A DNA stretch of 64,000 nucleotides from Ophelia neglecta (Eukaryota), in the NCBI GenBank assembly GCA_965285935.1, contig OZ260665.1, forward strand, positions 27,280,001 through 27,344,000, written 5' to 3'. Positions 41,201-64,000 of this stretch are shown piece after piece. The first letter of the stretch is position 1. Each line of letters opens with the position of its first letter. Made by a program: the position numbers and the translations under genes. The notes under the pieces were generated by a model. That model made no database searches and had not been told where the DNA came from. It worked only from the letters and a program-made list of their open reading frames with translations.

Positions 41201-44200
41201 TTAGATGGTCATGTCTGTCTCTATGTAGATCATCTTCCTTCAGTCTCCCCCTCTGTATCATCTCAGCCCTTCTGCTCTCGTCTGCTACATCCAATCTCTC
41301 CCATCTTTTCCCGTGTGTAGGCTCTTTGCAAATTGTTATGCACATCTATTTGACTTGCTTGTAGAGAATATATACGTATATATACGTGCCTTCTGATAAT
41401 GTATGGCATTCTGGCCACATCTAGCGCCACCTGTTTACCACTAGACTTCATTTCTGATACAGTACTTCCCATTTGATTAACTCAGGATAAGAGGTGATGA
41501 TACCCATGATTACAACTGTAAAGAGATAGGGCGAGGGATTGTATCATTTTCGCAATGTCTTAACCGCCCTAAGCTAGAATTTGTTAGATGCAAGTCAGTT
41601 GAGAAAATGCTCTATCTCTCGGCTGAATACCAAGGTGATTATGAGTAGTAAATACAGTGGCATATTTGTACAATTCATTTGCAAGGAGCTTTCACAGTGT
41701 CTTTAGTTTGCCTTCCGTTATATTGCAAAGTGACTCACATATAACTTGCACCACATCGGGGTTGATACAATGATACGTTCTGTGATGTTGGGTTCGTTCT
41801 GTGTCCCGTGTCTCTCCTAGCTAGTACACCTGTCTCTACGTCTGTCTGTGTTTGTGTGGCTTAGGAGCATGGGGAGCATGCTAACCGACACATGGCTACC
41901 ACCGTCTCCTTTACAGCAGAGCAGCAACATAGCGCATGAGCCCGTCTCTCTCCTTCTCATTTGTCTCATGCTACTGTAATCAACCATCATGTAATCAGAT
42001 CAGAAAAATGCTCAAATTCACCTTAACAATTAAATGGTAATCTGTGATAATCTATATTATACTATATCAATTTCAAAATATGAATGCATGTGATCTTTTC
42101 TAAGGATCATATACATGCTGTGTTTCGTTGATCTGCACGTATTTAATGCATGCCCCTTATTTTCCCCTTATTTGCATGCAGGGATTCGGTTTTGTAACAT
42201 TTGCAAATAGCGCCGACGCCGACAGAGCACGTGAGAAATTGAACGGCACAGTGGTTGAGGGACGAAAAATTGAGGTGCATGGTTATTTCCATATGTGGTA
42301 GCACATACACTAAATTGCTAAGTTATATTTATATTGTGCAGTATTAAGAAATGCCTGTGTACTGTTCAAATGTCTTGTCACCTCCATATATATATATATA
42401 TATACATATTTGCATATTCTTCAAAGTTTTCTCCCGACCAATGATATGATTGTCCGATCAATGAAATTCTAAAATCAATGCTTTCACGATGATGATTAGT
42501 GTATGCCTTCCCGATGTTAACTATTTAGAGACTGTGCATTTTGGTTTACATGTTGTACCAAACTTTTATCTGTATCCAGCTGATAAAGGAATGTGGAAGG
42601 TTTTTGTAACCAATCCTAAAATAAGTTTCCAAAACTAAAAGGAGATTGTAGTATTAGAAATTAAATAATCCTTCCATGTCCCCTTATAGCGTTTTGTATC
42701 TTCAGTCTGCAAATGCCCCTTTTGTATATATTAGAATTCAATTTCACCGCCCCTCCCTGCATAATGATTTGATCGTAATATCCAAAAAAAGTTGAGCTGC
42801 ATAATCTCCCTTTGAATGCATTCAACATTATTAAATGTGTATCATCTGCATTGGCATTTCTTGATGCTGAGTTTTTTTTCTACAATTTTTATTGATGTAG
42901 TTTGGCTTAGATTTTTTTGTACATAACATTGTACATAATGTAGTAGGCCTTCATAACAAATAACATTATGTTGAAAGCTCGCAGACACCACCAAATCTGG
43001 TTCTTGTTTCATACCCTGTATAGCGAAAAAGGCCAAACCGCGCTATTACATGACTCGTAAATATATCGGAAAAAGATGAAATAGTACATCTGTAGGTAGG
43101 TGAGACAAATTCTGCCAAATGTGAATAACCCAGAGACATCTCGCCACATTTTCCCAAGAGTGCTGTGTCTCATTCAACAGCAATTCAAATAGGCTGTTGC
43201 CAGATAAATTGGCCAATGCCAGACTAGTAGGAATCTTGCTATTTGAAATATGATTGTAATAACTAGCATGTGGTGCAGTACTGAAGAAAATTAAAGGTGC
43301 TGGACCACTAGATCAGGATCATATGTTATGTCTAAAGTCATAAGTTGACTGTTTAGTGCTTGTGAAAGACCACAAAATATGTATGGTTCCTAATAGGATA
43401 AAACATGATCAAAACATTACTACAATTAATACACAAGTTGTTACTGAGCAGAAGGCTATTGGTAATGTTGTGTGGACATGACACATCTGCCCCTTTGTGT
43501 GGACTACTCAATACATCACTGTGTAATTGGAAAAAAAGGTGTTGTCACCTTCAAAGACTTTAGATATGACAAGCTGACGTAAATCAAAACTGAAAATAAG
43601 AGATTAAATGACACACTGTATCAGTGTTTTGTTGTGTGTCAGACACTGCCCCTGTCAACTTCTTGAAAATGATTTCTGAAAGCCTTAGTTAAACATAGAA
43701 CTGCTCCATGGAAGCACTAGACTACAGATACAAAGGTACATGTTCATATACATGTAGTTTTGGACCAGGGCAGCACTATTTGAATTGCTGACTGTGCTTT
43801 TGGATTCATTATAGCTTTAGTACGTAGTAGACTTACCAGAATAATCAGTTGTTCAATCCTTTGACAAAAATTAAGCATAAATCAGAAGGTGTCTGGCTTT
43901 CCATTGTGTTTCAAAGTTTCAAAATTGATGGTAGTTTATTGTTCATGTGTAACTTTTGATGGCAAACATTTTGGATCAGTGCTGATCAGTGCAAATAAGA
44001 AGTCATCAAGTTTTAGTTTCAAAATTGTGGGTTAAGACGGGTATTATTTCTTCACATGAATATTGCTTTAATCAGACAAGATTTGTCTCAAAGTGCTGCC
44101 AGTGATCTGAAGTGTTTGTCCATACTACTATATGCTAAAGAAGATGGTGAACCTATTGTTGAGATATTGAACTTCATTCTTTATCATTTTGTCCACTTAG

Positions 44201-47200
44201 AATTGTGGGGGTGAGAATTAACACTTAGCATTTAATGATTTTATAAGCATACAAAAATTAAGAAAAAGAAACCCTAGAAAACAAGAAATTCATGGACAAT
44301 TTCTACAATTGAGGTTCAGCATGCTTTTTAGCCAACTGTATCATCCTTATAGATTTACAGTCAAAATATGGTTCATTGTATTTCATGACATTTCTGAATA
44401 ATGTGATTAGGATATGTGTGTAATTATGTAAGGACTAGGTTTTAATGGACTTCTCAGATAAACAGTTATGTATATATTTGTGCTGTAAATAGTAAAGTTT
44501 TTCTCAAGTAGTATCATGATAAATTATTCATCTTGTAACTTGCAATTTAAGTTTTTAAAATCAAGATAAGTTTCTTTCCATAAATTGAATGCAATGACCC
44601 ATTATATTCTTAATACTAGAGAAAGCATACTTTTATTATATAATTGGTAAAAGAGGTATTATATTCTTGTCTTTGAAGGTGTTTTGTACTTACATGTTGT
44701 AGTTGTATATCAATAATTGTGAAGTGGCCATGTTTTGACTGTAACAAACTGATTCATATCTTTGATAAAGATTGGGTATTTTCTTACTTCGCTTATACCA
44801 TATGGTTAACAAGCAATCCAACATTTTTAGGCAATTATATTTAAGAAGTTAAAATATTGAAAGCTTTCATGAAATTAATATTTGAAAATAATATTTATAT
44901 CAGTGAATATGCAATATACCTGGTATTTTAAACATGTAGAACTTTACTGCATGTATATTGTGAATTTCATATTATTAGGACCACTGGGGTTATCCAATAT
45001 GCAGAAAATTTAAGCTACATTTCTTGTCCTTTTTAACTTGTCCGTTTGTGTTATGAAAGGTATGAATCAATAAGGATAAATTGTATCTGCTTCCCAAATA
45101 TATCTGACCCTGGTAAGAACAAGTGCTATTTTTTACCTTCTAATGTCAATCGGATGCATTTATTGTTTGTAGGAATAAATCGAATATGGATTTGTGCGAT
45201 CTTGCAAAAAAACACTGTTCAAAGGGTCTCATATCTTTGGTTAAAGTACATTAATGTAAATCACTGCTAGGCCCACGACTTTTTTTATGACACTGTATGT
45301 TTTCCATTGATAGGTAAATAATGCAACAGCTAGGGTTATGACAAAAAAAGCAACCACACCGGGAGCCGTGGCTAACGGAGAACTTGGTAAGTACCCAGTA
45401 TGCCTCTCTTGGTAGTGGGATTACTGTATCAATATTATAGCACACTGGTTGGGCTCTAGGATAGAAAATTATTAAGTCTTTGGAAGCATCCGTTTCACCT
45501 TTTTCTTTCGTGTGATTGATAACACTTTCACCCGGTGAAAGCATCACTCCCAGGCGTAAACTACAAAGGCCTGTGATTAGCTGGTGAAGTGTTCATCCCG
45601 TGTTCCGTCACCTAGGGACACCTCCCTTCACCTCCTCCATTAACGGACCTACATTGTCCTTGACTGAGATGCGTTAGACTGCAAATCTCTGCCAATGTAA
45701 ATCACAGGATTTGCTATTTCCACTGAAGCTTTATCCCTTTGGGCCCCTTGCTTTAATTTGACCATCTGCCAGAACAGCATGTTTGTTACTGCCAGTGGAA
45801 ATCGATCTCCTTCACCTTAGCCACAGAGACCTAAATAATTTACACACTCCGCAGCCAACTTTCTCCTGGGCTGGCCAACGGTGAAAGCAACAAGTTATTT
45901 TATGTGGTAGGCCCCTGGCTACTGATTACCATGCATGTAATGAAACTTTTTTCCATTTATCAAAGTCTGTGGCATGTCAGATATGGGTTTGTTAATTAAA
46001 GCAAACTTATTGTTTCCTGCAGCTACCACAAGTGTATGAGGACAGGGCCTGTCCTTCAGATTAGCTTTGTTGCTCTCTGGTTTCAATAGTAACAGTGTGG
46101 CATGGTCGCTTAAGGTGTAAAGGTGCATCCAAGTCAAATCACTCATGTACGTCACTTCAAAGAGATGTCATGCACTCAGCTCTTATGGTTCATTATCTGT
46201 TATGGAGTATTATTTATGGCACATATAAATTTAGCCACCTGAAAATTTAAGTGACCCTAGTATAGTCCAGAAGGGGGTATATGTTGATCTATGTGCTTCT
46301 GATCCCATTCACTGCTGGGTCTCCTATATCATAGATGTATCAAATGGCCTCATTGTAAAGTATAATAGCAGCTTGGAGCCACCCAACACCCGGCTTTACA
46401 CCTTATCTCAATAGCAATGTATGCAGGGAATCCATCTTTATGTCTGACCTGCAAAAAAATACCACAGCATGTCTGTAGGAATGTGAGTGATTGTGTTCCA
46501 TCCTAAAGGGGTCTCAGTCAGCATAATAAGGACATACAAAGGGCTCCTATCAGTCTGTCTACTGCAGACTTGTATCTGTCTGTCTCAACCAGGACATGGC
46601 CGTTGATCAATTTTGACCATATTTTATAAATGTAGAACAGTATATAGATGAGCAGGTGTGTGTGAACCAGTAATGTATCAAACCATGTCTTTTATTTTAT
46701 AATTCACAGACCCGTCAATTGATCTGTTTCATTCCTCAGCTGCCGCGCTGAGAGGCGCCGCATTCACTAGGGGGCGAGTACGAGGGCCGTACCCGACTGC
46801 CGCAGCCGCCGCCGCCGCCGCTGCTGCTTTCAGACAACCCACACCACTCGCCACTCATCCAACAGGCTTGCCATATGCAACGTATGTATTCCCCGCTGAG
46901 AACTTCACTTACCAGTACTTACTACTTGGCAGGAGTACATTGAATGTTATCAAGTGTTACTCTGTAACTAGTAATACATCTACCCTCCCACACAAGTCAG
47001 TACAGAGAAGTATATTGGTGTGAAAATCAAAGGAGCCTTTTAGACATACAAGCTGTAATTAACCACTTCTAAGTCTATAAATATATAGCCAACTCTCCTC
47101 CATGTGATCAATATATCCCAATTCACATTGGATACCCACATACAGCTATATGTAACTGTATGCCTAGGGCCATGGATTTTGGTTTGTTGGTTTACAAAAC

Positions 47201-50200
47201 AGCTGACTGCAGTCACATGTACCTGAAAACATAGGTACTTTTTCCTTTAATAATTTAATTGTTGTGGTCCTTCCGTTGGTCCCTTTTTGTTGGAGGGTGA
47301 CTATAGCCCCATTCCCAAATATTTATGTATTTGCTATGAATTCTTTTCAAAATGCCTTTTATATGAATAAGGAGATAATCATCCTTTAGCGATAAGCCAT
47401 ATTTAGTGACAAGGCTTGGTACCACCTGACTTTGAGGTACTGATAGCTCCCCTGCCAGGCGCCCCGTATTTTGGGTGTAATATCAGGACTGTTCAACACG
47501 GTGTCAGTATAATATATAATGTGGGTGGGGTTCCCTGTCTGGTGTCTACGGCATGTACTCCAGAGATGCAGCACTCTAAAGAGGGCATTGAGCCCACTGT
47601 CACAAGGAGGCACTGTGGTGATATGACCATATCTGTGATGAAAGCCACATAAAAAACCCCAACCAACAAACCAACCAAGCCACCTGACTTGGTCGTCACA
47701 TTCAATGTACCACATTATCAATTTGATTTTGCAGTTAGTTAGTATCTAATGTAAACAGAATGATTATTTTGTACATAAAATACCGGTACGCATGTGCATA
47801 CTAACATTTGTTTGAACTCTGATTTGGTAGTTGTTCTATGATTTGTCGGTCATGGCCTGTCAACTTGTAACTACACAGGTTTTTTTTTTCAGAAGTGTCT
47901 ACCAGGACCCCTTCCTAGCCACTGCTTATGCCGAGAGATACCAGGTAAGATGTTTGTCCCCCCTCCATCCCCCTTGTCATCTCTTCTACATGACCTAGAA
48001 GATGACCCCCTCTAGTCCAACCCTTGTTCTTTCATTGATTATGTTATGGGAATGATACTCTTGAGAACATACATTGTGTTGTAACTATGTTTACATTTGC
48101 ATGGAGGTGCTGATCAGTATTAATTCTATATTGTGATGACTCTCTCTGCACATACTTGGATGAGACAATGATACTTTCCATTGGAAATATATGTAGAAAT
48201 TGGTAGTTAATCTCCGTAGACCAGCACACACAGCTTGATAATGTATTATTGGTTTGTATATATCTACATATTATATATTTACTCTGTTTGGTGTGATCAA
48301 GCCATTTCTTAGATGAACTTTTGACTTGTGTGATTTTCATTTGAACCTCCATGCTATGTCGCCCAAACTATTGACCAGTATGACAGCCTAAGAATACAAA
48401 ACCAATAGCTAAAAGCCTGAAATGAAATGAAAGCAAAATCCTCAGAGAATCTTCACATCTGACCCATTGAATTTGAAGTGGTTGGCCTGGGTTTAAAAGG
48501 AACTAATCTGATATTAGATTTGGTGTCTTGGATTGGCTACAAGTCTGGTCTGTGATATGAAACCAATTGTGCATATTGTGTATGAATTGATGAAGAATGA
48601 AGTTGTGTGTAATGCAAGCCAAAGACCCAGATTGTGGACTGTTTGTTAGCCATTATCATATCTTACAGCAAGCTTTTTACAATGTTTTAAATCCAAGTTT
48701 AATTTGATGAAGTATTTTTTGTGGCAAATGCCCCGAAATTAATTTGTGTTACTAGTATAATCAGCACTAGCCATGCAGACCCTGGATGAATATTTTTGTA
48801 CTGTTTAATTTGATTTGCAAATTTTAATTGTAGGCATGCCATTTATAGCAAGAAAAGCATGTTACTATAAGGTGGTTTTGACCAATGTAAGACATGCAAC
48901 AAACAAACCAGATTAGTCGTCAGGATCTGTAGAAGAGTACATTACTACAATTACTATGAAGTAATGAAGAAGGGTAGAAAAATAACTCTCCCCATAAACT
49001 GATAAATGGAGACACAGAAAATCTGTTTCTCTAAACTGTATTTCTAGTTTTATTGAAATTCTGAGGAGGTTAATAAGCAAAATGCCATAGCTTGCTTAGA
49101 TTATGAATAGGTATAGATATATATATATATAACAAATTAAACCTTGTTAAAAAATCAACCAATTATCACAATCCCACACAACCCACACGGATTTTTAGTA
49201 TTTGGCTTAAGTTTATAGGAAAAACACACTTTGTTAAGTTAAACTGGTTTTTTATAAGACACCCACATGCATTGGTGCATTATGAGCAATTTTGAACTTT
49301 TTTTCTGAAATTCTTTAATTGGAATAATTAAGATAATTTACTGTCCTTAAGTGTGATAGATTGAAACATAGAGGCTTGCATTGCAAGGCCAACAATTTTA
49401 TGCAAATTAAGATAATTTTGCCATTTGTTAATCAAGTAAATTCTAATTTGCATTTTCCTATTTTTGATACTAGGTGAAGGATGTGACCAAATTTTGTACC
49501 AGATCCTTCCCAATTAATTGAATAATTAATTTCCCCTATGATTTATTGACATTATTTATGGTAACTGATTTCACTTACTATGACTTGGCCTCACCGACAA
49601 TCTGAATGGCGTGTAGTAGTATCGTGTTGTGGGCTATAAACTACTAATATCATGGAAGGACACAGGTTGCGGTTGGCATCTCTCTACGTAGTGCTTGCTT
49701 GCACATTGGTCACACACAGATTTGTTCAAAACATAATTTGTTCTCCTGCTGAGTGTTTACAGTAGTCGGCTGCACTGGCCTCGTGGCCCACACACGACGC
49801 CAGCGCCACCTGGTAACAACCCACATAACCATTGACCCTAATCCATTGACCCGACTGACGACCTCCAGATTGACCTTTTTGATATGGAGATGGTGTTTTA
49901 GTTGGCCAGAGTAATCGGAACGAGTATTTGAATGAATGTTTGGTCTTCTTTGCTTTTTTAGCCATATGCTGCAGGGTATGCGGCTGCAGCAACCCGGTAC
50001 GCTATTCCCACTGTAGCCACTGCGGCTACATATGCGGCCACAGGGTATGTGACATGTCTCCCTTTGTCTCCACGAGTGCACTCCAACATGCTTCCAACTA
50101 TGTTTAGCCTCAGGGTGATTTGACTCCATACAATCGTTCAAAACAGCTAGCATCCTCGAGATGCACATACATTGCCCACCCTTCGTACCAGCCAATGAGT

Positions 50201-52716
50201 GAAGCCACAAAGCTGGCACAGTTGACAGATACTCACTAGTCATTTCTCAATCTGGTCTTCTCCACACTAACACATTGAAACTAATAAATTGATACTATCA
50301 GAATTTCTGCCTGTCTCATTAAGCTTATATCTTATTTTTAAAAAAAATTTTGAAGATATAATCAGATGAAATTCATGTCTACTATTAGCCTAAATATAAG
50401 GGATAGTTGAGAAAAGGACCAGACTGGAAGTTTCAGTGTGTATCTGGATCACAAGGTGAAGAACTTTACATCTTGGCTTGGTAATTTTGGCTATATTGAC
50501 ATATGGAAGAGTCCCCGACGGACGCAGTGATTCGGGGTTTATTCATACATTGACTTACAACAGTCTCTATTTATACTACTAGCCCTTACCATGCAACAGA
50601 CCTCCCTCGCTAAGTAAGATCGCATCCTGCCTGTTTTTGTCATCTTTATCATCGTTCCTGGCATCCCTTTTGATCGCTAACCAATCAGGAAATTGTGCCC
50701 TGAATTAACTAAATTCTAAAATAACCAAATTTAAAGCTGCTAGATAAGTGCTTCAGATAGTGACACACCCTGTGAGCACTGTTGATGGGGAATGAGTTTC
50801 ACCTTTTGCGCATTTTAAGTATTTTTCGTGGTGTATATATTTGACAAGGCATGATATTCCTACTAAGGAACTCTCCGTGTCTAACCGGGTGGAAGGTGTT
50901 TTTGGACATGGTAACTATGCTAGAAGTAAGACCAGTTGATAGTGCATTTGACACTGAATACAAGCTTGGAGTTTTTATCACCCTGATGCTAAACATGGAA
51001 TGTTTTCTAATTAGTATAACTATGGTTTTCTGTTAAACTATTTATTATCAGTTTTAGTTTTATTTTCAAATAAAGAATAACATTTTAAAGCTGGTAGTTA
51101 TTGAAATGATATATAGTAATTGAATGATTTACTAACACTGCATGTTTCAACACAAAATGTAGTTCATAAGATGCCAAATTTTGCACTGTATTGGCAAGTA
51201 AAGATTTTCTGAATGATATTGCATCATGGATATTAAAAGTATGGAAATTACCTGTGCATAACATTAATGTGTTATTATTGTACTTTACCTGAGCACAGAT
51301 TGCATGTAGATGTTATTAAACTCGTAATTGTATTTCGCCATGGGTAGTAGTTCGATTACTGCACTGAATGTTTGCCATGTTCGATGTGGAACTGTTATAA
51401 CCACTCTCCTCTACATGTGGAAGGACTCTTTTCAGTTTACTTTGTTTCTGTTGGTAATGGTGTTCAGTTGACAATTTAGCAAAAATCAATCCGCATCTTC
51501 CGACCAGTCAAACCTCCAATTTCCTCTCCTCCCCCTTTGCCTCACCCCTCTGATTCTAAAATTAAGCTATGTTAAACACTTTTCGAAAGCCACCAGTTAT
51601 TTTTCTTGTCTTTCATTTCTCCTGTTGCTTCTGTTATTTTAACTCTAACCCTCTTTGCCACCCTGAGTTTGACACTTTCCCTGTACTGCCGAGTTCTGAA
51701 TTAAGTTTGACGACTGCCGTTCCAACCAACCAACCAATCAACATATATATTTGTGTGCCCCGATTCCTCCCGGCTTTCTCCATGGCTGGCGAATCCTATT
51801 TGAATTTGCGACTTGCCGAGTTTCTACTCACCTAATAACAAAGTTTGAGTGCATCACATGGCCAATCCGGAATTCAGTGCATACTGACGACTACCGTACC
51901 ACATGCAATTGCAATTTTTTAACCATGTAACCAGTTTTTAGTTATTTGGTTGATTCTATGTTGTGTGCAGACTCAGGCATGGAGTGGTTGATTTCTGACT
52001 AACATTGGAAATGTTTTCTCCTAAATTTGCAGCGGTGCTGTTCTTTCCAGTTATGGGGGTCGTGAATTCGCAGCTGATCCCTACATAGGACATAGTATTG
52101 GCCCAGTGAGTGCCTATGGGGTAAGTTTGTATGCATAACAACTTCTGTTTCATTGAAATTATTGCTAAATGATTACTTGTTGAGCTGTTCTGTAGGCAAT
52201 AGGGTTACAATTGGCAAGTAGAATTAAAAAAAAAAATAGCAAACACATTCTACAATGTAAAGCATTCTTAACAATGAGAAGATCTTACTGCTCTGTAATG
52301 AGTTGGTAATTATCTACATGGAAAATGTTAGACTTGTTAGTGCCTGTCTCCTCAAAAATCATTGTATAATACAGTCTTCCATTCAAACGGAAAATTGCTT
52401 ATCATGAAATTGAATTAGAAAGGATGGTTACACTGCTGATGTGACAAATTAGTGATCACCAGTTACAAGAGCAATAAGAGTAGGAGGCTATGGGCAACAA
52501 TTTTTCAGGAGAAATTGGCAATAGCAAGCAGTCTAAAAGTATTAGAATTATCAATGTTGTGGTACCTGTCCTGTTTTTATCTCTAAGCCTTTTTGATTTA
52601 CTTTCCAGCAAACTCCTACTGCTATTCAGTATGGAATAAATACTAAGGCTTCACTTGGCTTGCCCTTGCAGGGTGCGGTGTATCGAGCCGGATACCAGAG
52701 ATTTGCCCCATACTGA
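31998..52716 (+). CDS. RBFOX1: RNA-binding protein Fox-1 homolog (Rbfox/A2BP1), spliced CDS of 10 exons, 315 aa core isoform
   Basis: Join 31998-32201, 37794-37925, 39949-40002, 42182-42274, 45314-45386, 46740-46881, 47893-47944, 49962-50044, 52051-52120, 52672-52716 totals 948 nt, is open, and all introns are GT-AG. It encodes [14 protein letters not shown]...[57 protein letters not shown] (diagnostic Fox RRM) and ends YQRFAPY*. Invertebrates usually have one co-orthologue of RBFOX1/2/3. Confidence 0.97.
34037..34275. repeat. 17-bp minisatellite (AGGCCAGGCAAGGCGTT)n in an Rbfox intron
   Basis: More than 10 imperfect tandem copies visible. Confidence 0.92.
37794..37925 (+). CDS. RBFOX1: Rbfox exon with RRM RNP2 (QTDLECES...[24 protein letters not shown])
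   Basis: Branch-like gctaac, ttcttgcag acceptor, GGG|gtacat donor; conserved Fox RRM start. Confidence 0.96.
39949..40002 (+). CDS. RBFOX1: Rbfox 54-nt RRM exon ([18 protein letters not shown])
   Basis: tatttcag|CAA...AAG|gtatgt; same boundaries as in vertebrate Rbfox genes. Confidence 0.97.
42182..42274 (+). CDS. RBFOX1: Rbfox 93-nt RRM exon containing RNP1 ([31 protein letters not shown])
   Basis: tttgcatgcag|GGATTC...GAG|gtgcatg; 93 nt, homologous to the skippable vertebrate RRM exon. Confidence 0.97.
45314..45386 (+). CDS. RBFOX1: Rbfox exon, end of RRM ([24 protein letters not shown])
   Basis: ttgatag|GTAAAT...CTTG|gtaagt; conserved [10 protein letters not shown] motif. Confidence 0.96.
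46740..46881 (+). CDS. RBFOX1: Rbfox C-terminal-domain exon ([21 protein letters not shown]10[17 protein letters not shown]); alternative in-frame acceptor at 46710
   Basis: ttcctcag acceptor, AC|gtatgt donor; RGxxxRGR motif of the Fox-1 C-terminal domain; poly-Ala at 46799-46828. Confidence 0.92.
47411..47677 (+). mobile_element. 5'-truncated SINE, MetaSINE-like
   Basis: GGTACTGATAGCTCCCCTGCCAGGCGC...CAGGACTG...GTCAGTATAAT resembles the Meta central domain of molluscan tRNA-SINEs (recalled, not searched); 3' tail ...AAAACCCCAACCAACAAACCAACC. Confidence 0.55.
47893..47944 (+). CDS. RBFOX1: Rbfox exon ([17 protein letters not shown])
   Basis: T-tract + cag acceptor, CAG|gtaaga donor; VYQD motif conserved in Fox proteins. 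Confidence 0.92.
49962..50044 (+). CDS. RBFOX1: Rbfox exon ([28 protein letters not shown])
   Basis: tgcttttttag acceptor, GG|gtatgt donor; Ala/Tyr-rich low-complexity C-terminal domain. Confidence 0.9.
52051..52120 (+). CDS. RBFOX1: Rbfox exon ([23 protein letters not shown])
   Basis: Branch ctgactaac, ttctttccag acceptor, GGG|gtaagt donor; AADPY motif. Confidence 0.94.
52672..52716 (+). CDS. RBFOX1: Rbfox terminal coding exon ([14 protein letters not shown]), PY-NLS
   Basis: cccttgcag acceptor; the RFAPY C-terminus is the established nuclear-localisation signal of Rbfox proteins. Confidence 0.96.
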   Translation, partial: GAVYRAGYQRFAPY

Positions 52717-55700
52717 GGTCAAAGGTCGCCCGCGTGGCTAGAGGAGAGGGCGGGAGGAGCATCATCCAGGATTTGTAGAGATTGGTCGCTATTTTGTATA
52801 TCTCACGATGGTCTGATAGAGACAGATTGTACAGTATAACGGCAGTAGAAGGCATATGGAAGGAAAGGCATCTTGGACCTGCCCGACCTACTGACCGATT
52901 GGTGCCAGAAAGCTTATTGTAAACTGCCACAAACCAAAGGCGGACCTCTCGTGCGGTCCTTAACCACCCAATACCAGTCAATATTCACTCTCCAAAAGTA
53001 CAATACTCATCTCCTGTCCATAGGCGCCCAGTCATTCAGTTCAGTCTCCACTTTAAAAAAAAATACACAGTTCATTTTAGTGATTAGATAATGTGTAATA
53101 TATAGGGAAGTTGTATTGTACAAATGGTAGATTCACTGTTTGTTTGTCTGCTGTAGTGGTGGATGAAGTTTTTGACACCGACAACCTTCCATGTTTCAAC
53201 ATCTACTGTGCAATGTACATGTATCCGTGTGGGCTGTACTGTAGTTTTGTAAGCCACCACAGCCAATTATTGTCAATCCACCTCAGATAGAGTCATGATT
53301 ACTGTATAAACCAATCCCAACAATCAGGAGCCTGCTTTTGCAAGTGCCAGGACAGTTTCAGGCAAGATTTACTTTGATTTTGGATAGAAAAAATCACAAT
53401 GCTGCTACACCTTTAAAAAGTGTGAGAGAAATCACCTGTTTCATCACCAGACAAGATGAATATTTGTCATTGCGGGATGAATTAATGAAAAAGAATTATT
53501 TTTGATTTCACTATATTTTTTGGAGTAGATATAAGATGATCAGAAACTGTCCAGGTACTGCGATGTTTAGTATGCCATAGCTATTTTGTGTTATTATATC
53601 CTTGATTTGTCAGTCAAAGAGTCAGATTGGAGACAAATTATATATATTTTAAAAGACATTTTTTCAGTTTAGATTGTCATGGTATTTCTCTCAATTGATC
53701 TAAGGTGCTCATGGTATATGTGTATACCAATGGATTTTATGTATGTGCAATGGCAGACATATGTCATGTATAGCCTCATTTACTTACTTGATGTTTAATA
53801 CATTTTATGTAGTGTGCATATGGAACAAACGTTTGTGTGTGTGATTTGGAGAGATGCTTATTAAGAACTGATATTCTAGCTTGCCCATGTAGCTTTGGGA
53901 CCACTTGTCCCTTTCACTACCCAAGTTTAAACCTCTTCTAATTTAGTGCAAAGTTCACACTCAATGAAAACTGCAAATAACATATAAGAGCTAGCCCATG
54001 GTGCACTGATTGTCACGGCCGAGTTTGCTTGTCCTGAAAAACGTGGAGACAATGGTGTTCAGCTATGGAAACAAGGCCCTGACATGAATTCTTCCCTCCA
54101 GACTCACTGTATGAAAATCTCATGTAAAGTTTTTAAACCAAAGAGGATATTAATACTCTTAAATCAGGAGTAAATTATCTAACTTATGTATCTATTCACA
54201 CAAACTGTACATCTAACTCGAACAAACTAGGTAAAATTGCCTGCTTCACCTGCCTTCTCTTGCTCCAGATTAATGCTACAACAGAAATGTGTTCCTTTAA
54301 TTTTCTGGTGCGAATGAAGCAGACATTTGATTGGTTCTGCTACCTTTAAGACATAGATATCTACAAGGGTTCCTGGCGTTGACTACCAAACGGGAACTCT
54401 TGGAGCAGCCTTATGTCACCTCGATGGGTCAGTATCAGTCATTGCCGTTTTGTGTTCCTCAATATTTTGTAATCATAACTTTGCTACTCACATTCAGGTT
54501 AAGACTTGATCTTTTTTACATGCATTGTGAAGATAAATCTTGAACTTTTTTGTGTCTGTGTGTAAATTTATTTATTGACCAGTTTTGCAGATGTTATGAG
54601 TTATAACATGAATCTGTTCACACATCTAAAGCACAGTGTTTGCTGCATGGTTTGAGTCGCTCAGTAGCTGAGATCTGAGCAATATGTGTGTATTATGTTA
54701 TTGAGTAGATCTATTGTAATTACACATAGTATCAAATCCAGTGCACTCTCTGTGTCACCCTTCTGAAGTACGTGTATATTATTGACGATGATTTCATATA
54801 GGTGCTTTACTATACATTTTGAACTAAATATATTTAAGCATTTGTGCGTACCTTTGCGGCCAACGCAACTTCCACCTTGTGTATTTCTGATGTTGCTGTA
54901 ACTTGCCAGTTAGTATATGGTATCCACCTTTTGGTTTTGCCCACCTGTTTTGGACAGTAGAATTATGAAATTGAATGATATACATTTGCTCTGCCTATGT
55001 ATTTTTAGTCTTTGGGTATTGTAACTCGGATGCCATGAATGTCGTCATGGCCGCAGCCCGGTCGCAAAGGTACAGGTTTAGATGTGAGTTTTGTCAGATC
55101 TGATAAATTAAGATTGAAATCATGTGTATATAGACATAGGGCAGATTGAGAAGCACAGTATATAGTTTGTTAAGTGCTATATAATATATAACAAGATTAG
55201 GATGTAGTGTCTGTATTAGTGGCAAATCGTGTAGTCTACGTTAATGTAAAGAATATACAGAAGTATACAGATTAGTTAGAGTACCCAATCCTAACAGTAC
55301 ATTGTCTTTGATAGTGCATTATGATTTATAAACATGTCGCAATATCTGTGCATTTGGTTTGATCTGCAGAAACGAATGGTTATAAGAAGGCATGCTGGGT
55401 TTGCAGAAAATAAGAAAGCATCTGTTCAAAATTATAAATTTCCACTGGGCATGTTAGATTTGCAGTGCCCGCTGTGCTCTTTGGTTTTGGCTCTGATTTT
55501 GTCACACTGTATACATTGATTTGGTTTGCTGTGCTCCATTGGTATTACCTGGTATGCTGATTACTACAATTTAAATATTTCTACTCTAGCTTCTATCTAC
55601 TGTTTTTTAAATCTAGTATTGTCGTAGAAATTGGCCAGCCTGAATGAAAGAAAGAATATCACTTGCTTCCTCCCTGTAATATCCTGTAAGTCTGCCCAGG

Positions 55701-56300
55701 AGAAGTATCTGTAGTATACCTCGGAGCTAGTCAGTTTTATATTATAGATCCTATTTAAAATGTATGATTGTTGTATTGTTGACCTATTTATAATACCCAG
55801 CCTGGCGGTTACACCAGACTGTAGCTTAATGTCAAACATCCTAGAACATCATGATTGAGACAACTCTCATTGTGCCCCGGCCTGCCAATCTAGCCTATGA
55901 ACTGGTGAATACCATGGTATTGGTTGCTATGGCAACTAGATAATTACATTATCCTTAGTGGAGGTTGATTAGATTGCTCAACAACTGAGAAGATGGCTGA
56001 CTCTTACCACTGCCAGTCTGTGGTGGGGGTGACCAGCCTAGAGAGGTTCCGGCCCCCCAGAATGAGAGGGTACACAAATAAGCTGGTCAGAAATCACTGC
56101 TTTAATCCTAAGTTTGGCAGCTGAAAGCCAAAGTTGTCACGTATGTATTCTGTAGGAATCACATTGTATAAGCTTCATCATTGTAACTATACACTTTGTA
56201 ATGATATGGCTATTATATATTAAAGCACTCCGTATACAGTTTATATCTTATACTGTATCATTGTTGCATTTGATGCAATAAATCTGTTAATAAGACTCAT
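52717..56300 (+). other. Putative long Rbfox 3'UTR (~3.6 kb)
   Basis: The first canonical AATAAA I could find after the stop is at 56277-56282; the intervening sequence is rich in UGUA and UG. Confidence 0.55.
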
Positions 56301-56331
56301 TTCATTAAATTTGTTATTATTTATTGTTGTG
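56277..56331 (+). terminator. Polyadenylation signal and downstream U/GU-rich element of Rbfox
   Basis: AATAAA at 56277-56282, then ttgttattatttattgttgtg at 56311-56331. Confidence 0.55.
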
Positions 56332-58579
56332 ATCATCAATAGTTGTGTAGATACACAGGTTTTCTAATAGTATTCTAGTTTCCCAAGATAAAAATGTGTT
56401 TTTTTTCTTGTTGCATTTTTGATATTGATAATTGGGAAAATTGACAAAATGCATGATGATATCTTTATCAGCATTAAGATATTGCCATAGGAAAAATTGT
56501 TTCCCATTTAACTCTTTCCCTGTCTAAGGTTTTCCTAGCAACAAAAAAGTCTACCAATTAATTTCTATTTAGAAGTCTAAAACTTATGCTTTTGTCAAAT
56601 AATATTAAATAAACTATGGGTTAGTATTTATCTTTGAACAGTCCATAGGTTACATGGTCAGCTATCTGTGGATTATTCTGGTCATTGCCATATGGACCGT
56701 TCTTGTTATGTGCCTCAGTATTAATCATAAATGGCAAGGAAACCTTGTAAATAGAAGTTATAAGTGATTTGTCCTCTTCCTCTAAGTTTCATTAGAACTG
56801 CACAATCTAGCCAATATTTAGATTAAATGTGGGAAGCATTATTCATATATTTTTAATAAATTTATTTGTCATTGTATTTAGGGGCAGTAGTCTGTAGATG
56901 CATTGAAATGTGTCTTTTTATTATCATGCTTACATATAGGGAGGGGTTTTAAAAGATGACTACTGTTATATATGTAACTTGACCACTGAACTTGGATGAT
57001 ATGTACTCTATTTAAGTAAGTTGGGTAGGGTTTTCGCTACCTCTGTGTTGTGCAGTTTAGTTTTTGCCCCCCCCCCCCCCTCCCCCCTAGAGGTTGTGAC
57101 AAGCACCTAGGCTCCCCTATTACACTCTCACTTGTGGGTTCAGATGGCTTTGTGCAAACGGCTTAACTACACTGGGCCCCTTAGTATCAGTCACTGTTGA
57201 CCTAGGCAAATTCATTTTTACTTGGTACAAAATTTGGGTGATAAGCTAGTGTTGGGTCATGAGACTGATTTCTTATATTATTTGCCTTCCAATAGCTTTC
57301 ACCATAGATTTCTTTTATATTTCTTTTGTTGTATACACAAAAATAGCATTATTTAGTGACCATTGGAAAATATTTACACACACATCATTCTTTGGGTATT
57401 ATGAAAATATTTAAATATTTAACTTACCAAAAGTATCAATCAGAGCTATACTTGATACATCTGGTAGGGTGTTAGCCCTCGGAATGCTTGAATTTAAAAT
57501 GTGTATGCAAAGGTACATACTAAACTGCAGTGTTAGCTTAAGATGTTGCAAAGGTGTGTTGTACAGGGGCACATGTGCAGAGGTGGTAAATCAAGACCAA
57601 CAGAGGTTCCCAGTTCGCTTAGTTCCTTTCCATTGAAACCTTATATTTGATTTCTCTAAATGTGCTTTGTTTAATAAAGAATAATATTGCATAGCCAGTA
57701 GTATGCAGAGAAGGATGAGGTAGTATTGTGTAAAAGTAGTAAGGTACCACTGAATCAGACTGGTAAATCATTCCTCAAGGGCGTATTCTACAAACTAGGG
57801 AAAGGTATTTAATGAAATACTATCAATGAACCAAGTCCCAACTTGGTGGAAATCAGGCAAATAATAATTACTGTGGGGTAATGTAAGTAATGTGCTGCCT
57901 GAAGTAGTATAGTACGGTAAGCCAGAATTTTCGTAGCTACTTTTTCCTCACATAAATGAAAGCCCCACTCACTATTCGGTTATATATATGGGGACAATAT
58001 AACTATTTAATCTGTATCACCTGACCTCAGTCTCCGAACACCGCCAAACCAAGTATCGTTGCTCGCCGTTTTTTTTTAGTTCACGGTCAATGTTGTCTAT
58101 CATTTTGCTGTTTTATACTACTTTTTTCCACTCTGAAATAAATACCACAACCAACAAATATCTTTGAAAGAAATATGATGCTAAAGTGTCACTAGTTTAA
58201 TACGGAGACATTGACAGAGGACATGGGCAGTTCTTTGTGTTAATTCTCAAAACTTCGTAACATTTCTACGTCAAAACTATGCTATATACTGAAATATCGG
58301 TACATTATATCATTCAAACGTCACGGATTTATTACCTCACAATGAACTCCGTTTAAGTCCACTGTCAAGGTCCTGTCATTAACCGAACAGACCTTTGTTC
58401 CCGCTACAATAATCAAGAAAAGGCAATTCTCGATTTAATTTTGTTTAATTTATTTCATTGTCAATTTTACTTTCCTTCGTCAATACATTATATTTGCCCC
58501 AAGATGCATAATTTCCCTGAAAACACTTGATTTGCGTTGAACAGGCAGACTGTGATTCATGTAAAGAACGTAATGAGGC

Positions 58580-58937
58580 AGTAGTCTATAGCATTTGGCG
58601 AATCAAAGTTGTATCGCAACCATCGGGAAATTTATCTCCTCGAAGATTAAGGTACTCAAAGACTTGTAATCGATGTTAATAGAAACGGTAGACATTTGTG
58701 AGTTCCTTACTCCAAACCACGTCTCGATACGTGCTGTACTTTTTGAGATATTAAGCAGAGCATGCGAAAAAACACGAAATAAAACAAACAATTCTCGCCC
58801 GGACATCGGACACTCAACGCGTACGGACCGAGATCAACTAGCCTATACACATGCATTTCGGACACTAAACGGAACGGCTAAATGCGGCGGTGCACGAATC
58901 TCCCCGCCAGTCCTGTGGCTTTGCTGACTTACTATAT
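58580..58937 (-). mobile_element. Possible non-autonomous Helentron/HINE-like (DINE-1-type) element
   Basis: CpG-rich; degenerate GTCCG repeats, a GCGG...CCGC hairpin and an AATATCTCAAAAAGT core on the - strand. Ends not certain. Confidence 0.35.
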
Positions 58938-60475
58938 TTAGAGAACTAAATAAGAAAATATTTGTGGCTGGTTCAGGGAACCATGAAAGGCCCATATAGG
59001 GGCATATAACTGTCGATATACAGGATAAACCTTTGAGAGAGACCTTAAAATATTTACCATTAGTCCGGTTACCATGATATTAAAATTACTTCTTTGTTAT
59101 GATGAGACTCCTAATAGAAGAAATATGTTATTAAATCTTTATTTAGCATTATTACCGTAACTATGGGAACGAATGGCAATAATAACACTTTTCTCACCAT
59201 TTTATGGAGACTGGTATTTAGGGCTTACCAAGAAATATTTATAGAGCGCTGCTCACTCGCGAACATATCGTTTGTTGATACAGAATAAAAAGAAGCTTTA
59301 AAATACATTGATGATATATCTATAAGGCCCCCAACTCTATAGGGTTATGCTGTTGACCTACTTTGATTACTGTACTTATCAGTTCGAATTTCATGAAAAG
59401 ATGTTCAAGTATGCTCAAGTATTTATCGAAATAGGGCATCAACTAATAACGGAACAAATAAAAAAGAAAAACTTCTTGTTAATGTTTTATTTTATTTTTT
59501 CATCTATCCCATTCACCAGGTTTACAATAGAAACGGATATTTTGTGATTTCTCTGCCGGTTAGTAAAAAGAATTAAAACAATTAAAAATGTGCTATGATT
59601 AAGATGACCTATATTTGTAAGCCTTAAGAGTAGAAACTTCAATATATACATTCTGATAATTTAATTAAGGTTTATTTTTAAGGACATGTTCTGGTTTATA
59701 ACAGTGTTGTCTTATGTCATTACTGGACCCAGGAAGTCAGTGTGAATTAGGCCGATAGTGGCTTAATACAGGTAAAGGTGTAAATTGTAGACTAAGAAAA
59801 TAAGGGTAAATTTTCAACGTAAGCAATGTGTACGCACACAGAAATCTCTACGTACAGCTTAAGCCTGATTCACTATGCCTACCTAAAAATATATAATGGT
59901 GTACATAAGGCACTGAGAAAAGCTTGCAGATGTACAAATGGGCAAACCAGAACAACTTACGAAAAACAACATTTGTAGGCACCTGATTGAATAAATATAT
60001 TATATTACACACACTCGTTAATAATAGGTTGTCAATCTTAAAATTCATTAAATATTGCAAATAATTTTTTTTCAAAAAGACCCAAAGTGTCCCCTCACCT
60101 ATAAAAATAAGTGGAGAATGCTTGTACATTGTGTTTGTCATTTGTTTTTAAATGGTGCGGAAAAAATGCTACAAAACGGGTCTGTGATTTGTCACTCTAA
60201 TCACTCCACCTCTCTCACAGATTAGTTATCACACACAAATTCTTTGACAAAAACTCATTTAGGCCTACTGCAAGTCTGTTTACATAGGCAACGAACGGAT
60301 TTCCAAACTGTGTTTCATCGAAGTCCGTGTGGTTTACGCAAGTCGTCATCGGTTAATCAGGTCAGGTAAAGCTAGTTTGTGGACGAGTCGGATTTGTGCC
60401 TGGTAATACGAGGCGGACACGGTAAGGTCGACCAACTGGGATTGGTGTCAAGATCAGCTCGCCCTTCTTCTAAAT

Positions 60476-61129
60476 CTAAAACCGACAGGAGCAGCCAGCT
60501 CGTCCCTTGGACGAGATCCCACAGCTGCACGCCGCCGCGCCCCTTGCAACCACCGCCCGAGAGCTGCAGACGTTCACGCGGGGTTGTGGAACCGGTATGT
60601 TGTTTTGGCAACGTCGGGGCCGACATCCGCCGCTTGATCGAAGGGGCACACCGCAGGCGCCGTTGCAACCAATCTTGCCACAGCCGCGGCAGACACAACC
60701 TCCGTTGCAGCCACGTCGTCCGCATCCGTCACAGGGTCGAAGGCCGCAGCTACCAGGGGCGCAACCTCTCCTACCACAGCCGGAGCATGGCGAGGGGCAG
60801 TCTCCCGCGCATCCCTTGTCTCCACACCTGTCACAGGGGCGGGGGCACGTGCCGTTGCAGCGCCAGCTGCCGCACCAGGCACATGTCCTGGTACGGCATT
60901 CGCCGTGGCAGTCGCTGCCATGACAATAATTGCACTCGCCGTAGACGGGAGGGCAGGCGGGGCCATACTGGACGGGACTATCATAGACCACGTGTTCTGG
61001 TTCCTCGTACACAGACCTGCGAACCACGACATCGTAGTCATCCCCACCGCCGTAGTAATCGTCTCCGCCGCCGAATAGACCATCCAAGAATCCCCTCCTT
61101 CTGGGTGGCTCGTCGTAGTAGTAGGCCAT
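60476..61129 (-). CDS. Uncharacterised 217-aa Cys/Gly-rich protein: Tyr/Gly/Asp-rich N-terminus and six C-x2-C-x4-C-x3-C modules
   Basis: GC-rich coding-like ORF with a splice acceptor (ggttttcgtttcag) immediately before the ATG; 32 Cys; no hydrophobic signal peptide. Confidence 0.85.
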   Translation of the reverse strand: MAYYYDEPPRRRGFLDGLFGGGDDYYGGGDDYDVVVRRSVYEEPEHVVYDSPVQYGPACPPVYGECNYCHGSDCHGECRTRTCAWCGSWRCNGTCPRPCDRCGDKGCAGDCPSPCSGCGRRGCAPGSCGLRPCDGCGRRGCNGGCVCRGCGKIGCNGACGVPLRSSGGCRPRRCQNNIPVPQPRVNVCSSRAVVARGAAACSCGISSKGRAGCSCRF

Positions 61130-62116
61130 CTGAAACGAAAACCGTCGTGGTTAAATAGGCATCTCTTAAATAGAAAATGGCTTGATAAATTAGAATATCA
61201 CAAGCAAGCCCATGTACAGGCTGTACTGTTCATATGGAGTTTTAGAATAGTCATTGTAGACATTTCATAGCCTTCCTGGCCGGGCCAATATATTAGGAAC
61301 CGAGAGTAGACCCACCAAGCATCTTGATTTTAACGAATAATTTCGACAAATAGTCTTAAAGTTCATATCAAGCCAAGCTAATTAGAACCAATTCCTTTGG
61401 TGTATCAACAAACATCCTTATTTCAGGGTTTTGTGCAGATCTCCCAATTCTTAATTTCTCGTGTTTGGCCGCCCTGGTGTAAAGTAGTGGAATAGTGGCC
61501 ATGTTTATACCTTTCTTGGTAAGAGAAGGGGCGGGACCCCCCCCCCCTCTCCCCCTCCCTTATTATAATAATCCGCGTCATCATGCCTTAGTGGCTAAGG
61601 GGGAGGGAAGGAGCCCCCCCCCCCAACCCCCCCCCCCCCACTTGTAATATGCGTTGGTGGCTAAGGGGAGGGACCGTAGCCCCTCATTCCCCACAGGGGA
61701 GGGTAACCAAGGTATATTACAGGCCAAGTCACTCGGATAGTTATCCCAGAGTCATTTTCAGTATGATAATGTATGTAGATTTCTGTATTGATACTGTTAT
61801 TGTAGAACAGGCATCACTGCAAATGTTTTTTATAAAGACCTGTTCTACCAGGGTTTGTTTTATGACACATTCTGCTTACCAAGGGTACGGTTTCTGTCAA
61901 ATTTCCAAACCAATGACATTGTTTTTGAACAGCCAGCTGCCCACATTTTTGCAAAAGATTTTAGCCCTTATTTATAACCCCCCCCCCCCCCCTGGCTGTA
62001 TACATCGAAATACTGCCGATTTTCGAAGTAGTATAGCCAAAAGTAGCAGATCGAAAACAACTGTGAGCAGTGTATCAAAGTGACTGCTGGTGATAACCAG
62101 CCAACCCACTACTCAC

Positions 62117-62208
62117 TCGATACCAGAAATGTTAACTACGCACAGTTTATCGATGTGCAAGAGAAAGGAGACTGAAAGGACTCGAGTCATGAGCTAACTA
62201 CTTTAATA
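62117..62208 (-). promoter_or_regulatory. Candidate core promoter and non-coding first exon of the 217-aa gene
   Basis: On the - strand: TATTAAA (62208-62202), Inr TCAGT (A at 62173) about 30 nt downstream, donor CGA|gtgagt at 62116; implies a 987-nt 5'UTR intron. Confidence 0.4.
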
Positions 62209-62807
62209 ATTTGGAAAGTTGGTCTGTTGGAATGATACAATCAACTTATTATCTACACATGTCACTTTATTGGCAATCATAAAGAGGAAACTATATCTGT
62301 TATGTTACATTTTTATTCTACATTCAATTACTTTACAATTAGTAATTAAAGCTCTAGGTTATTCTTATTCTATTTTGACAAATTATTAGGGCCTACGGTG
62401 AATGATTAATGATTTAAAATGAAATATATTTCAATCTGATATCCTTTTACAAGAAATAAAGAGGTTTTTATATGAATATATAAACTAACGATACCATTCG
62501 AAATATATTTAGCAGAATACAGACAAGTATCGCATCAATGAAATAAATAGGTCCTTTGCGAAAGTAACAAATATATACAAACAAAGTTGTTTACTTTCTA
62601 TTTGCTAGAATCTATAAAAATGCCACCTATCTGACATAGCCTAGTACGATTATCGCGTGTTAACAAAGTGGAATTGATCTATATTAGAATTTGATAATAA
62701 TAAAGAATGGTAGCTGGTCAATGTTCATATTTTGAAAATAACGTGAAGCAGAATATAAGCTTCTTTCTGTTTTTTTCTTTACCCGGTATATTGTTTAATG
62801 ATGAATC

Positions 62808-63010
62808 GTAGCCCATAGTTTTTATCGTGATTTATTGTTTGACTTGTCACGTGTCCTGGAAGTCGTAGTAGTCGTAGCCTACTGTTTATCCTTGTGATTT
62901 ATCGTTTGATTTAAGGTCACCTGTCCTGGAAGTCGTAGTAGTCGTAGCCTACCGTTTATTCTCATGATTTATCGTTTGACTTGGTATCACGTGCGCTAGT
63001 AGTCGTTGTA
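62808..63010. repeat. 70-bp tandem repeat spanning the stop codon and 3'UTR of the 258-aa gene
   Basis: TCAC...GTCGTAG units recur at 62847, 62917 and 62987. Confidence 0.85.
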
Positions 63011-63772
63011 ACCGTAAGTGTTGCGCCTAGGGGCGTAGTCGTAGCCAATACGAGGGTTGTAGTGGACATCACAAGGCCCTGGTTCGGGCTCGTCGTAGTC
63101 ACAGCCGTGGACCTCACAACAGTCGTCCTGGGGCGGTGGCAGGTACCGAGGCTGGGATCTTACCCGGGGCAAGGGCTCGTAGTCGTTGTCACACCCGTGG
63201 ATTTCACAGCATTCCTCCTGGGGCGGTGGGAGGGGCCTTGGCCGTGGTAGGGGCCGTGGCTGGGCACGAGGTAGCGGCCTGTAAACCGGCTCCAGAGCGC
63301 AGTCGCAATCATCAAAGTCTTCATCATATCCGTAACCGCCCCTGTCGTCATCACAGCCGCACCCACCACCACGACCTCTTCTCCGGCAAGAGTCGTTCTC
63401 ATCCCTGCACTGGCACTTCCTCCGGGGTGCGGGCACTTCTTTGTAGATGATTTCTGGCTGCGAAGGCACTTCTTTGTAGATGATTTTTGGCTGCGAAGGC
63501 ACTTCCTTGTAGACGATTTTTGGTGGACAGGGCTTCTCGACCACCACCACATTCGTCTCTGGTGGAGGTTGGGGAGGGTGGAGGACCACAGGTGCTGGGG
63601 GCGGCGGTTGGTAGACTACCGGCGCTGGATTCTCCTCCCACACAGCTTCGACCTGGGGGACAGGCCGGGGCTGGAGGACCTCGACGGACGCGGGATCAGG
63701 CTGGTCGCTCGGTAGAAAGTGGTAGTCCGATCCCCGATTAGGGTTGATCGGAGTCACCTGGTGGTACGCCAT
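62996..63772 (-). CDS. Uncharacterised 258-aa Pro/Cys/Tyr-rich repeat protein (MAYHQVTP...; 3x KI(V/I)YKEVP-type repeats; 2x PPPQxxCCExHGCD)
   Basis: The true start is probably ATG 63772, directly after the acceptor gttacccttcacag; the 14 extra N-terminal residues in the ORF track look intronic. GC-rich coding bias; no signal peptide. Confidence 0.85.
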   Translation of the reverse strand: MAYHQVTPINPNRGSDYHFLPSDQPDPASVEVLQPRPVPQVEAVWEENPAPVVYQPPPPAPVVLHPPQPPPETNVVVVEKPCPPKIVYKEVPSQPKIIYKEVPSQPEIIYKEVPAPRRKCQCRDENDSCRRRGRGGGCGCDDDRGGYGYDEDFDDCDCALEPVYRPLPRAQPRPLPRPRPLPPPQEECCEIHGCDNDYEPLPRVRSQPRYLPPPQDDCCEVHGCDYDEPEPGPCDVHYNPRIGYDYAPRRNTYGYNDY

Positions 63773-64000
63773 CTGTGAAGGGTAACGACAAAACTTTAGG
63801 TCTACTGTAAACACAGGTCGGGTCAGTTTGGTAGGCTAGATTTCGGCGTATCTACTCCAAAATATCACGCTCTTTTTTGCCAAATGACAAAGATTACTTG
63901 TAGCCGAAAGACACTGTTCACCACTGACACGCCGTGCTTTGTTATACAGTAAGATCAAGCCTTGTCGTGACACTTTGGAAAGATGGCCCAAACCTACCCA

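Follow-up and report, generated by a model that had tools for sequence, protein, structure and literature searches.

A pair of orphan single-coding-exon genes for Pro-rich and Cys-rich proteins in the annelid Ophelia neglecta

What might two adjacent, repetitive, cysteine-bearing genes without recognisable relatives do in an annelid? The question is raised by the minus strand near the end of a 64,000-nucleotide stretch of Ophelia neglecta DNA (assembly GCA_965285935.1, contig OZ260665.1, positions 27,280,001 to 27,344,000; hereafter the window), which carries two such open reading frames (ORFs), here called A and B. A reading made from the letters alone (the sequence-only reading) had likened them to the single-coding-exon genes of the amniote epidermal differentiation complex (EDC), and had supposed that a cluster of such genes might continue past the window end. 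The coding exons and their internal repeats are listed below; a slash within a sequence marks a splice junction.

62996 to 63772, minus strand: coding exon of gene A, 258 amino acids, acidic and Pro-rich, with the entire coding sequence (CDS) after the acceptor ttcacag.
60476 to 61129, minus strand: coding exon of gene B, 217 amino acids, with an acidic Tyr/Gly/Asp N-terminus and a basic Cys/Gly/Arg core and tail; CDS after the acceptor gtttcag.
63432 to 63530, minus strand: three 11-codon repeats in A, P-[KE]-I-[IV]-YKEVP.
63092 to 63242, minus strand: two repeats in A, 30 codons apart, PPPQ-x2-CCE-x-HGCD, in which CC-x2-H-x-C is a candidate metal or cross-link site.
60653 to 60934, minus strand: six tandem C-X2-C-X4-C-X3/4-C units in B (residues 66-159, 24 Cys in 94 residues, linkers of 1-4 residues).

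The two coding exons and their relatives

A and B are real, intact, orphan genes, each with a single coding exon. The sequence-only reading had noted an acceptor AG next to the ATG of these adjacent minus-strand ORFs, and a pyrimidine tract and CAG do abut ATG-GCN-TAC in both (ttcacag/ATGGCGTACCAC in A, gtttcag/ATGGCCTACTAC in B). We regard the genes as real because of their third-position bias, their polymorphism and the divergence of the B repeats. The GC content at third codon positions (GC3) is 0.65 in both, against 0.61-0.70 in nearby actin exons and a background window GC of ~0.38. Contigs from three sequencing runs, all of one sample, cover both ORFs, and the two coding single-nucleotide polymorphisms (SNPs) are both synonymous (60872, Cys, in B; 63230, Leu, in A). 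Of the 11 differences in one haplotype, ORF B contains none, whereas 10 fall within 81 bases (60369-60449) shortly 3' of the B stop; the contrast between ORF B and its 3' flank has a binomial P of 0.002, for SNPs that are clustered and come from runs of a single sample. The pattern favours constraint on the two frames, in small numbers. At the conserved C/G positions of the B repeats, synonymous differences are found in 30 of 61 codon pairs, which suggests an old array. That the frames are non-functional, either repeat-derived or decayed, is extremely unlikely: homologues were not found for A or B, which would suit this explanation, but long ORFs with GC3 bias, synonymous-only SNPs and synonymous repeat divergence, together with acceptors and poly(A) signals, are at odds with it. 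The observed/expected ratio of CpG is mostly 0.5-1.2 around the pair, as against 0.13-0.41 in the upstream gene body, a contrast of a kind that fits a tissue-restricted gene. Downstream of B the run contigs skip 256 and 31 bases (58430-58685 and 58927-58957), which points to indel polymorphism or a repeat.

Both proteins consist of low-complexity repeats, as had been proposed, but they do not have the single Cys/Pro/Gly/Tyr composition ascribed to them. A is acidic and Pro-rich (Pro 19.8, Cys 5.8, Gly 5.4, Tyr 7.0%; isoelectric point, pI, 4.9), with a short Cys/Gly/Asp/Tyr stretch and PRP runs, while B is rich in Gly, Cys and Arg (Gly 17.5, Cys 14.7, Arg 11.5, Pro 8.3, Tyr 5.1%; pI 8.5). The GGxxDD..GG segments remarked on earlier are present in both, just once in each and at different places (residues 135-147 of A and 20-30 of B). 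The six tandem four-Cys units of B had been missed; shuffled versions of the protein contain a mean of 0.34 and a maximum of 3 such units (20,000 shuffles). The two PPPQ-x2-CCE-x-HGCD repeats of A, compared over 22 codons, have 9 identical, 6 synonymous and 7 non-synonymous codons, and a genome-wide search found no match to the motif outside A. We take KIVYKEVP in the other A repeat to resemble alveolin/articulin repeats, for which Pfam gave no support. AlphaFold returned no confident fold for B (pLDDT 39) or for two B repeats (pLDDT 54), and these models are too poor for a fold search.

Database searches agreed with the earlier remark that no named family could be recognised. A search of 5.8 billion proteins gave no homologue of B among 396 candidates and none of A among 2,987. 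Pfam, NCBIfam and PHROGs yielded no significant family for either protein: two pieces of A match Pfam at E 0.23 and 0.31 only, and the repeat region of B has no Pfam match at E up to 10. Sequences in the PDB match A or B only at E 0.74 or worse, and Rfam has no family in window positions 50000-64000 or in L003, which lies past the window end. None of 127 viral contigs matched, and the one match among 311 metagenome stretches was discarded as off-frame inside a bacterial gene. We did not find such annelid proteins described in the literature, within limited coverage. The spacing C-X2-C-X4-C-X3-C-P is like that of 4Fe-4S ferredoxins; a ferredoxin reading was rejected, the linkers of 1-4 residues being too short for the fold and a Pfam match being absent.

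With phmmer, B has a sole match among 1.84 billion representatives (P0003, E 1.3e-6). This protein is a bacterial-type PARCEL/BspA-type leucine-rich-repeat (LRR) 'surface protein' (JGI/IMG) in a singleton cluster, and its 48% identity to B over 88 residues is confined to the Cys/Gly pattern. Its tail (residues 183-270) has four C-X2-C-G-X3-C-X-G-X-C units, which no Pfam, NCBIfam or PHROGs model covers. Convergence is the likelier cause of the likeness.

Are A and B related to each other? Compared over their full length, they show no significant similarity (BLAST best E 2.0; local alignment against shuffles, P 0.06-0.12). When anchored at the N-terminus, the first 25-80 residues align with P 0.0005-0.004 against full shuffles, 0.016-0.039 against 10-residue-window shuffles and ~0.01 without MAY, in a test picked after the sequences had been inspected. 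Beyond MAY, the N-termini have in common Pro8, Asp16, Phe19, Asp23 and V[WY]EE-x0/1-P-x2-VVY near residue 40. The start pattern YNYAG/ATG-GCN-TAY-YAY occurs at 57 sites genome-wide (27 for the reversed control), with long frames at A and B only; the other 55 open 4-73 codons. Because only these two sites have long frames, are neighbours (2.6 kb apart) and encode N-termini that align weakly, A and B are probably old tandem duplicates. On this simplest reading, the acceptor and coding exon would have been duplicated and the repeats then expanded separately.

The cluster that had been envisaged is absent. No third member of the A/B type was found in 464 kb (100 kb before the window, the window itself and 300 kb after it; 2,114 stop-to-stop frames of at least 60 amino acids), and A and B are a pair only, without an EDC-like cluster. 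Each is single copy in the 762-Mb genome searched. Protein and pattern searches found no paralogues elsewhere in the genome by a method that cannot detect B from A, so that paralogues equally diverged and with another start would escape. The pattern C-x2-C-G-x2-G-C-x-G gave 42 matches against 9 in the control, 3 of them in B; of the 39 others, 38 are antisense frames, short unrelated ones or simple repeats, and one contains a stop codon within the match. The pattern [IV]YKEVP gave 35 matches against 33 (3 in A; 17 others inspected are unrelated), and a loose AG/MAY pattern gave 280 against 141 (first 30 inspected).

Upstream exons and neighbourhood of the pair

The features that bear on the transcripts of A and B are as follows.

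L003:1288-1445, minus strand: candidate non-coding exon Y of A, past the window end; splicing predicted.
L003:2066-2195, minus strand: candidate non-coding exon X of A, past the window end; splicing predicted.
61880 to 61976, minus strand: weak candidate promoter and exon 1 of B, with a TATA box TATAAATA at 61976 and a donor TTG/GTAAGC at 61879 (score 3.5).
63155 to 63166, minus strand: phase-0 donor-like site in A, CGG/GTAAGA after codon 203 (predicted); if it is used, A(1-203) joins B in frame.
62819 to 62985, minus strand: 70-bp tandem repeat in the 3' untranslated region (UTR) of A, echoing the C-terminal GYDY coding motif, with AATAAA at 62960 and 62836.

Each gene had been credited with one non-coding first exon. 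The acceptors do point to an upstream intron, but the strict layout of one plus one finds no support: A probably has two or more upstream non-coding exons, possibly shared with B, and B is without a strong donor of its own. The predicted donors of exon X (AAG/GTGAGT at 66065, or L003:2065) and exon Y (AAG/GTAAGT at 65287, or L003:1287; numbering continued past 64000) are perfect, and each has a good acceptor 51-187 nt before it. Perfect AG/GTRAGT donors number 11 in 552 kb on both strands, and two lie within 2.3 kb upstream of A (P ~0.001, for a window chosen afterwards). The DNA of the upstream exon candidates is single-copy. Part of exon X (L003:2066-2116, minus strand) is predicted to fold into two hairpins (-13.2 kcal/mol), with a Met-Ser-stop frame inside one of them, and may be a translational control element. 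Both the GYDY motif of the last codons and poly(A)-like signals recur in the 3' UTR repeat of A, which looks like a duplication of the gene end.

These exons also bear on where the products go. Many Cys-rich invertebrate proteins are secreted, and an upstream exon that escaped recognition could supply a signal peptide, in which case A and B would be terminal exons of secreted proteins of the cuticle, tube, cocoon or chaetae; an AG directly before ATG permits a phase-0 upstream exon, and exon X, in its shorter version, contains no stop in that phase (17 codons). However, both exons start ATG-G, which is unlikely if they are internal, and exon Y, the nearest strong candidate, has no ATG and gives an in-frame TGA five codons before the junction. 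The only ATGs of exon X stop within the exon, and all 7 candidate upstream exon versions lack an in-frame ATG that stays open as far as the donor, which makes a hidden signal peptide unlikely. The failure of a weak search to find longer relatives of A among 4,497 candidates is slight further evidence in the same direction, and we consider secretion very improbable. Neither N-terminus is hydrophobic (best Kyte-Doolittle 9-mer in the first 35 residues, 0.33 in A and 0.90 in B), and for this reason and the lack of an open upstream ATG both products probably stay in the cytoplasm, which upholds the earlier statement that they lack signal peptides.

A and B might also be alternative terminal coding exons of one transcription unit, an architecture that is compatible with any function. 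Shared exons X and Y would splice to the A acceptor or skip to B, and a fusion of A(1-203) with B may also be possible. This arrangement is consistent with the two perfect donors on the same strand upstream of A, with the donor-like site after A codon 203 and with the interval between the genes, where no donor scores above 4.0 with a generic matrix and where the candidate exon 1 of B carries two out-of-frame ATGs open to its donor. Against this, the TATA box of B is followed after 97 nt by a usable donor, A owns AATAAA signals, and chance alone would be expected to place a GTAAG in 777 nt; moreover, true donors of the neighbouring RRM gene score just 2.5-3.5 with the same matrix, which makes the absence of a strong donor weak evidence. 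We consider a single transcription unit somewhat unlikely; if A and B do share a promoter, the locus would exemplify a duplicated coding exon used as an alternative gene end. An operon with spliced-leader (SL) trans-splicing, considered since AG abuts ATG, is unlikely given the cis-donors upstream and the reported absence of trans-splicing from annelids (PMC7854359, in part).

The pair is flanked by a convergent RRM gene (Pfam RRM_1) and, 11 kb upstream, by a TPR gene. The exons of the former (window about 31995-50100, plus strand), with Ala/Tyr-rich C-terminal exons, converge on B and A; from its motifs we take it to be RBFOX/Fox-1. The latter (L004:916-1662, minus strand) is an intronless ORF of 248 amino acids with TPR repeats, a hydrophobic C-terminal stretch and an AG a few bases before its ATG; it is head to head with an exon that we take to be deoxyribonucleotidase-like. 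Starting 35 kb past the window, a CpG-rich satellite of ~87 kb (L006-L015, about 27,379,000-27,466,000; observed/expected CpG ~1.27) is made of a 1,924-bp higher-order unit (98-99% alike) built from ~482-bp subunits. Two tandem genes about 10 kb apart (L019:474-1472 and L020:925-2105, minus strand) are presumably actins by their sequence features. An intronless ORF of 564 amino acids (L108:4990-6684, minus strand), a possible retrogene, reads to us like RanBP9/10, a gene usually split into many exons. The genome has two erythrocruorin-linker matches (PF16915), which indicate an annelid.

Possible roles of the products

Our tentative preference, held at less than even confidence and by analogy, is that A and B make a cysteine-cross-linked scaffold of a terminally differentiating cell, most plausibly of the spermatid or sperm tail. 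Transcripts would begin in the non-coding exons X and Y, perhaps common to both genes. Each C-X2-C-X4-C-X3/4-C unit of B would hold one Zn2+ while the protein is soluble in the reducing cytoplasm, and the acidic, disordered, Pro-rich A, with its own CC-x2-H-x-C sites, would co-assemble with the basic B core. As the cell differentiates terminally, the assembly would lose its zinc, oxidise and become a stiff disulphide network, much as mammalian sperm-tail Cys proteins lose zinc before they are locked by disulphides. A spermatid is favoured because the Drosophila Mst(3)CGP genes provide an invertebrate precedent, because SMCP and LELP1 are expressed in testis, and because the hard parts of annelids are extracellular and their proteins secreted. 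The Mst(3)CGP genes, few and clustered, are spermatid genes with Cys-Gly-Pro repeats, and the axoneme is disturbed when they are lost (PMC10645079, in part), while the SEDC-type (single-coding-exon EDC) genes SMCP and LELP1 have mainly testis expression (PMC10791643, in part).

Several points weigh against the scaffold. The assignment to a tissue is a guess by analogy, and zinc binding by B is predicted from Cys spacing alone, with no confident AlphaFold fold. Cross-linked structural proteins usually come in families, and here there are just two genes, both lacking the CGP motif. To these may be added the insignificant full-length similarity of A and B and the choice of the N-terminal test after inspection, already described. 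Finally, four Cys in so strictly regular a spacing suit a folded metal module no less well than they suit an amorphous disulphide matrix.

The last point leads to a different role, in which B would be a soluble metal binder, either a metallothionein-like store of Zn/Cd or a tandem Cys4 zinc knuckle that binds RNA or single-stranded DNA via Arg/Gly-rich units, and A would be a separate Pro-rich adaptor. We judge this unlikely, although the density of Cys in six regular units speaks for it, as does the recurrence of their spacing in the tail of the unrelated P0003. Arrays of CCHC zinc knuckles are exemplified by the CNBP type. Like zf-CCHC (PF00098), the B units are in tandem and start C-X2-C-G-x2-G; Gly is found at knuckle positions 5 and 8 in 5 and 4 of the 6 units (12 and 17 of 17 true knuckles), and the similarity of the units to 17 CCHC knuckles, taken from six loci in the genome, exceeds that of a composition control (P 0.003). 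However, they score 3.1 as against 18.8 among true knuckles, and column permutation gave a P of 0.07, which is not significant. None of the six has the His ligand, which is replaced by Cys, or an aromatic residue at position 2 (17 of 17 knuckles); the last spacer is X3 in 5 of 6 and the linkers are as short as 1-4 residues. The lack of a Pfam match to the repeat region likewise counts against a knuckle.

Metallothioneins have 20-30% Cys in CC, CxC or CCC, few aromatics and an N-terminus of 3-10 residues (PMC13168519, in part). B approaches them in its 26% Cys over residues 66-159 and its predicted cytoplasmic location. It differs in its CxxC spacing, with no CC/CxC organisation, in an overall Cys content of 14.7% and in a long Tyr-rich N-terminus, with 58 residues before the first Cys at residue 59; A has 5.8% Cys. 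B also has one coding exon, compared with four short exons in the earthworm metallothioneins treated in parts of PMC13168519 and PMC12783039. TGCRCNC elements, similar to metal-response elements (MRE-like), are upstream at chance level (6 against 4.7). Whatever the role of B, it is a compact C-X2-C-X4-C-X3-C repeat without a family in Pfam, NCBIfam or PHROGs, and its predicted metal binding is easy to test.

Comparison with known Cys-rich systems

A and B are not EDC members, as locus, cluster size and Gln/Lys content make plain; the analogy that survives is that of an intracellular Cys cross-linked scaffold. They share with the SEDC genes (loricrin, SPRR, LCE, SMCP, LELP1, avian EDCRP) a whole CDS in one exon after a probable intron, a tandem arrangement, the absence of a signal peptide, and low-complexity Pro-rich and Gly/Cys-rich sequences too simple to align. 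They differ in having no sequence homology to them, in being flanked by RRM and TPR genes and not S100A, in probably having more than one upstream exon and in the regular C-X2-C-X4-C-X3-C units of B in place of CC repeats. There are 2 genes as opposed to about 20; monotremes have 18-25 SEDC genes (PMC10791643, in part). Many EDC members have Gln/Lys-rich motifs for transglutaminase cross-linking (PMC4423139, in part). Such a Gln/Lys-rich composition of the transglutaminase type finds no support here, A and B having Q+K contents of 7.8% and 2.8% and termini that are not Q/K-rich.

A convergent epidermal 'cornification' locus, in which A and B would be cross-linked in SPRR/loricrin-like fashion in epidermal or hard-tissue cells (chaetal follicle, microvillar tips, jaw-forming cells), is improbable. 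It would account for the one coding exon after an acceptor, which matches the SEDC layout in PMC10791643 and PMC4423139, for the resemblance of Pro-rich and Gly/Cys-rich partners to the SPRR and loricrin/LCE composition classes, and for the missing signal peptides. It agrees poorly with two genes outside a cluster, with so little Gln and Lys, and with the literature searched, which offered no annelid precedent. That annelid hard parts are extracellular and built of secreted proteins is a further objection. We also hold as quite unlikely an annelid SEDC-like locus built independently, in which one promoter and shared non-coding exons would choose between two duplicated coding exons, and an acidic Pro-rich scaffold and its basic partner, made of a hitherto undescribed tandem Cys4 zinc module, would together cornify an intracellular structure. 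By analogy, the sperm-tail and metal-binder options of the sequence-only reading would suit the pair at least as well as an epidermal role. Invertebrate genomes commonly contain two-gene orphan loci, and the likeness to the EDC is one of layout, by analogy.

KRTAP genes are intronless, with a single exon and no non-coding exon 1 (PMC4423139, in part); A and B differ in having an acceptor-like YAG and a pyrimidine tract before the ATG, which suggest an intron. Nor was the KRTAP-like composition suggested earlier supported, there being no regular CC repeats and 2 CC dipeptides in A and 0 in B. The closest invertebrate precedent for the role that we tentatively prefer, the sperm-tail scaffold, is Mst(3)CGP (Mst84Da-d, Mst87F), which likewise comprises small clustered genes for repetitive Cys/Gly/Pro proteins (PMC10645079, PMC3439415, both in part); A and B differ from it in their lack of CGP, and a male-germline role for them would be one assigned by analogy. 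If the two genes are expressed as proposed, they would provide an annelid case of the repeated independent origin of low-complexity Cys-rich intracellular scaffolds, next to the KRTAPs of hair, the EDCRP of feathers and the sperm proteins of flies and mammals.

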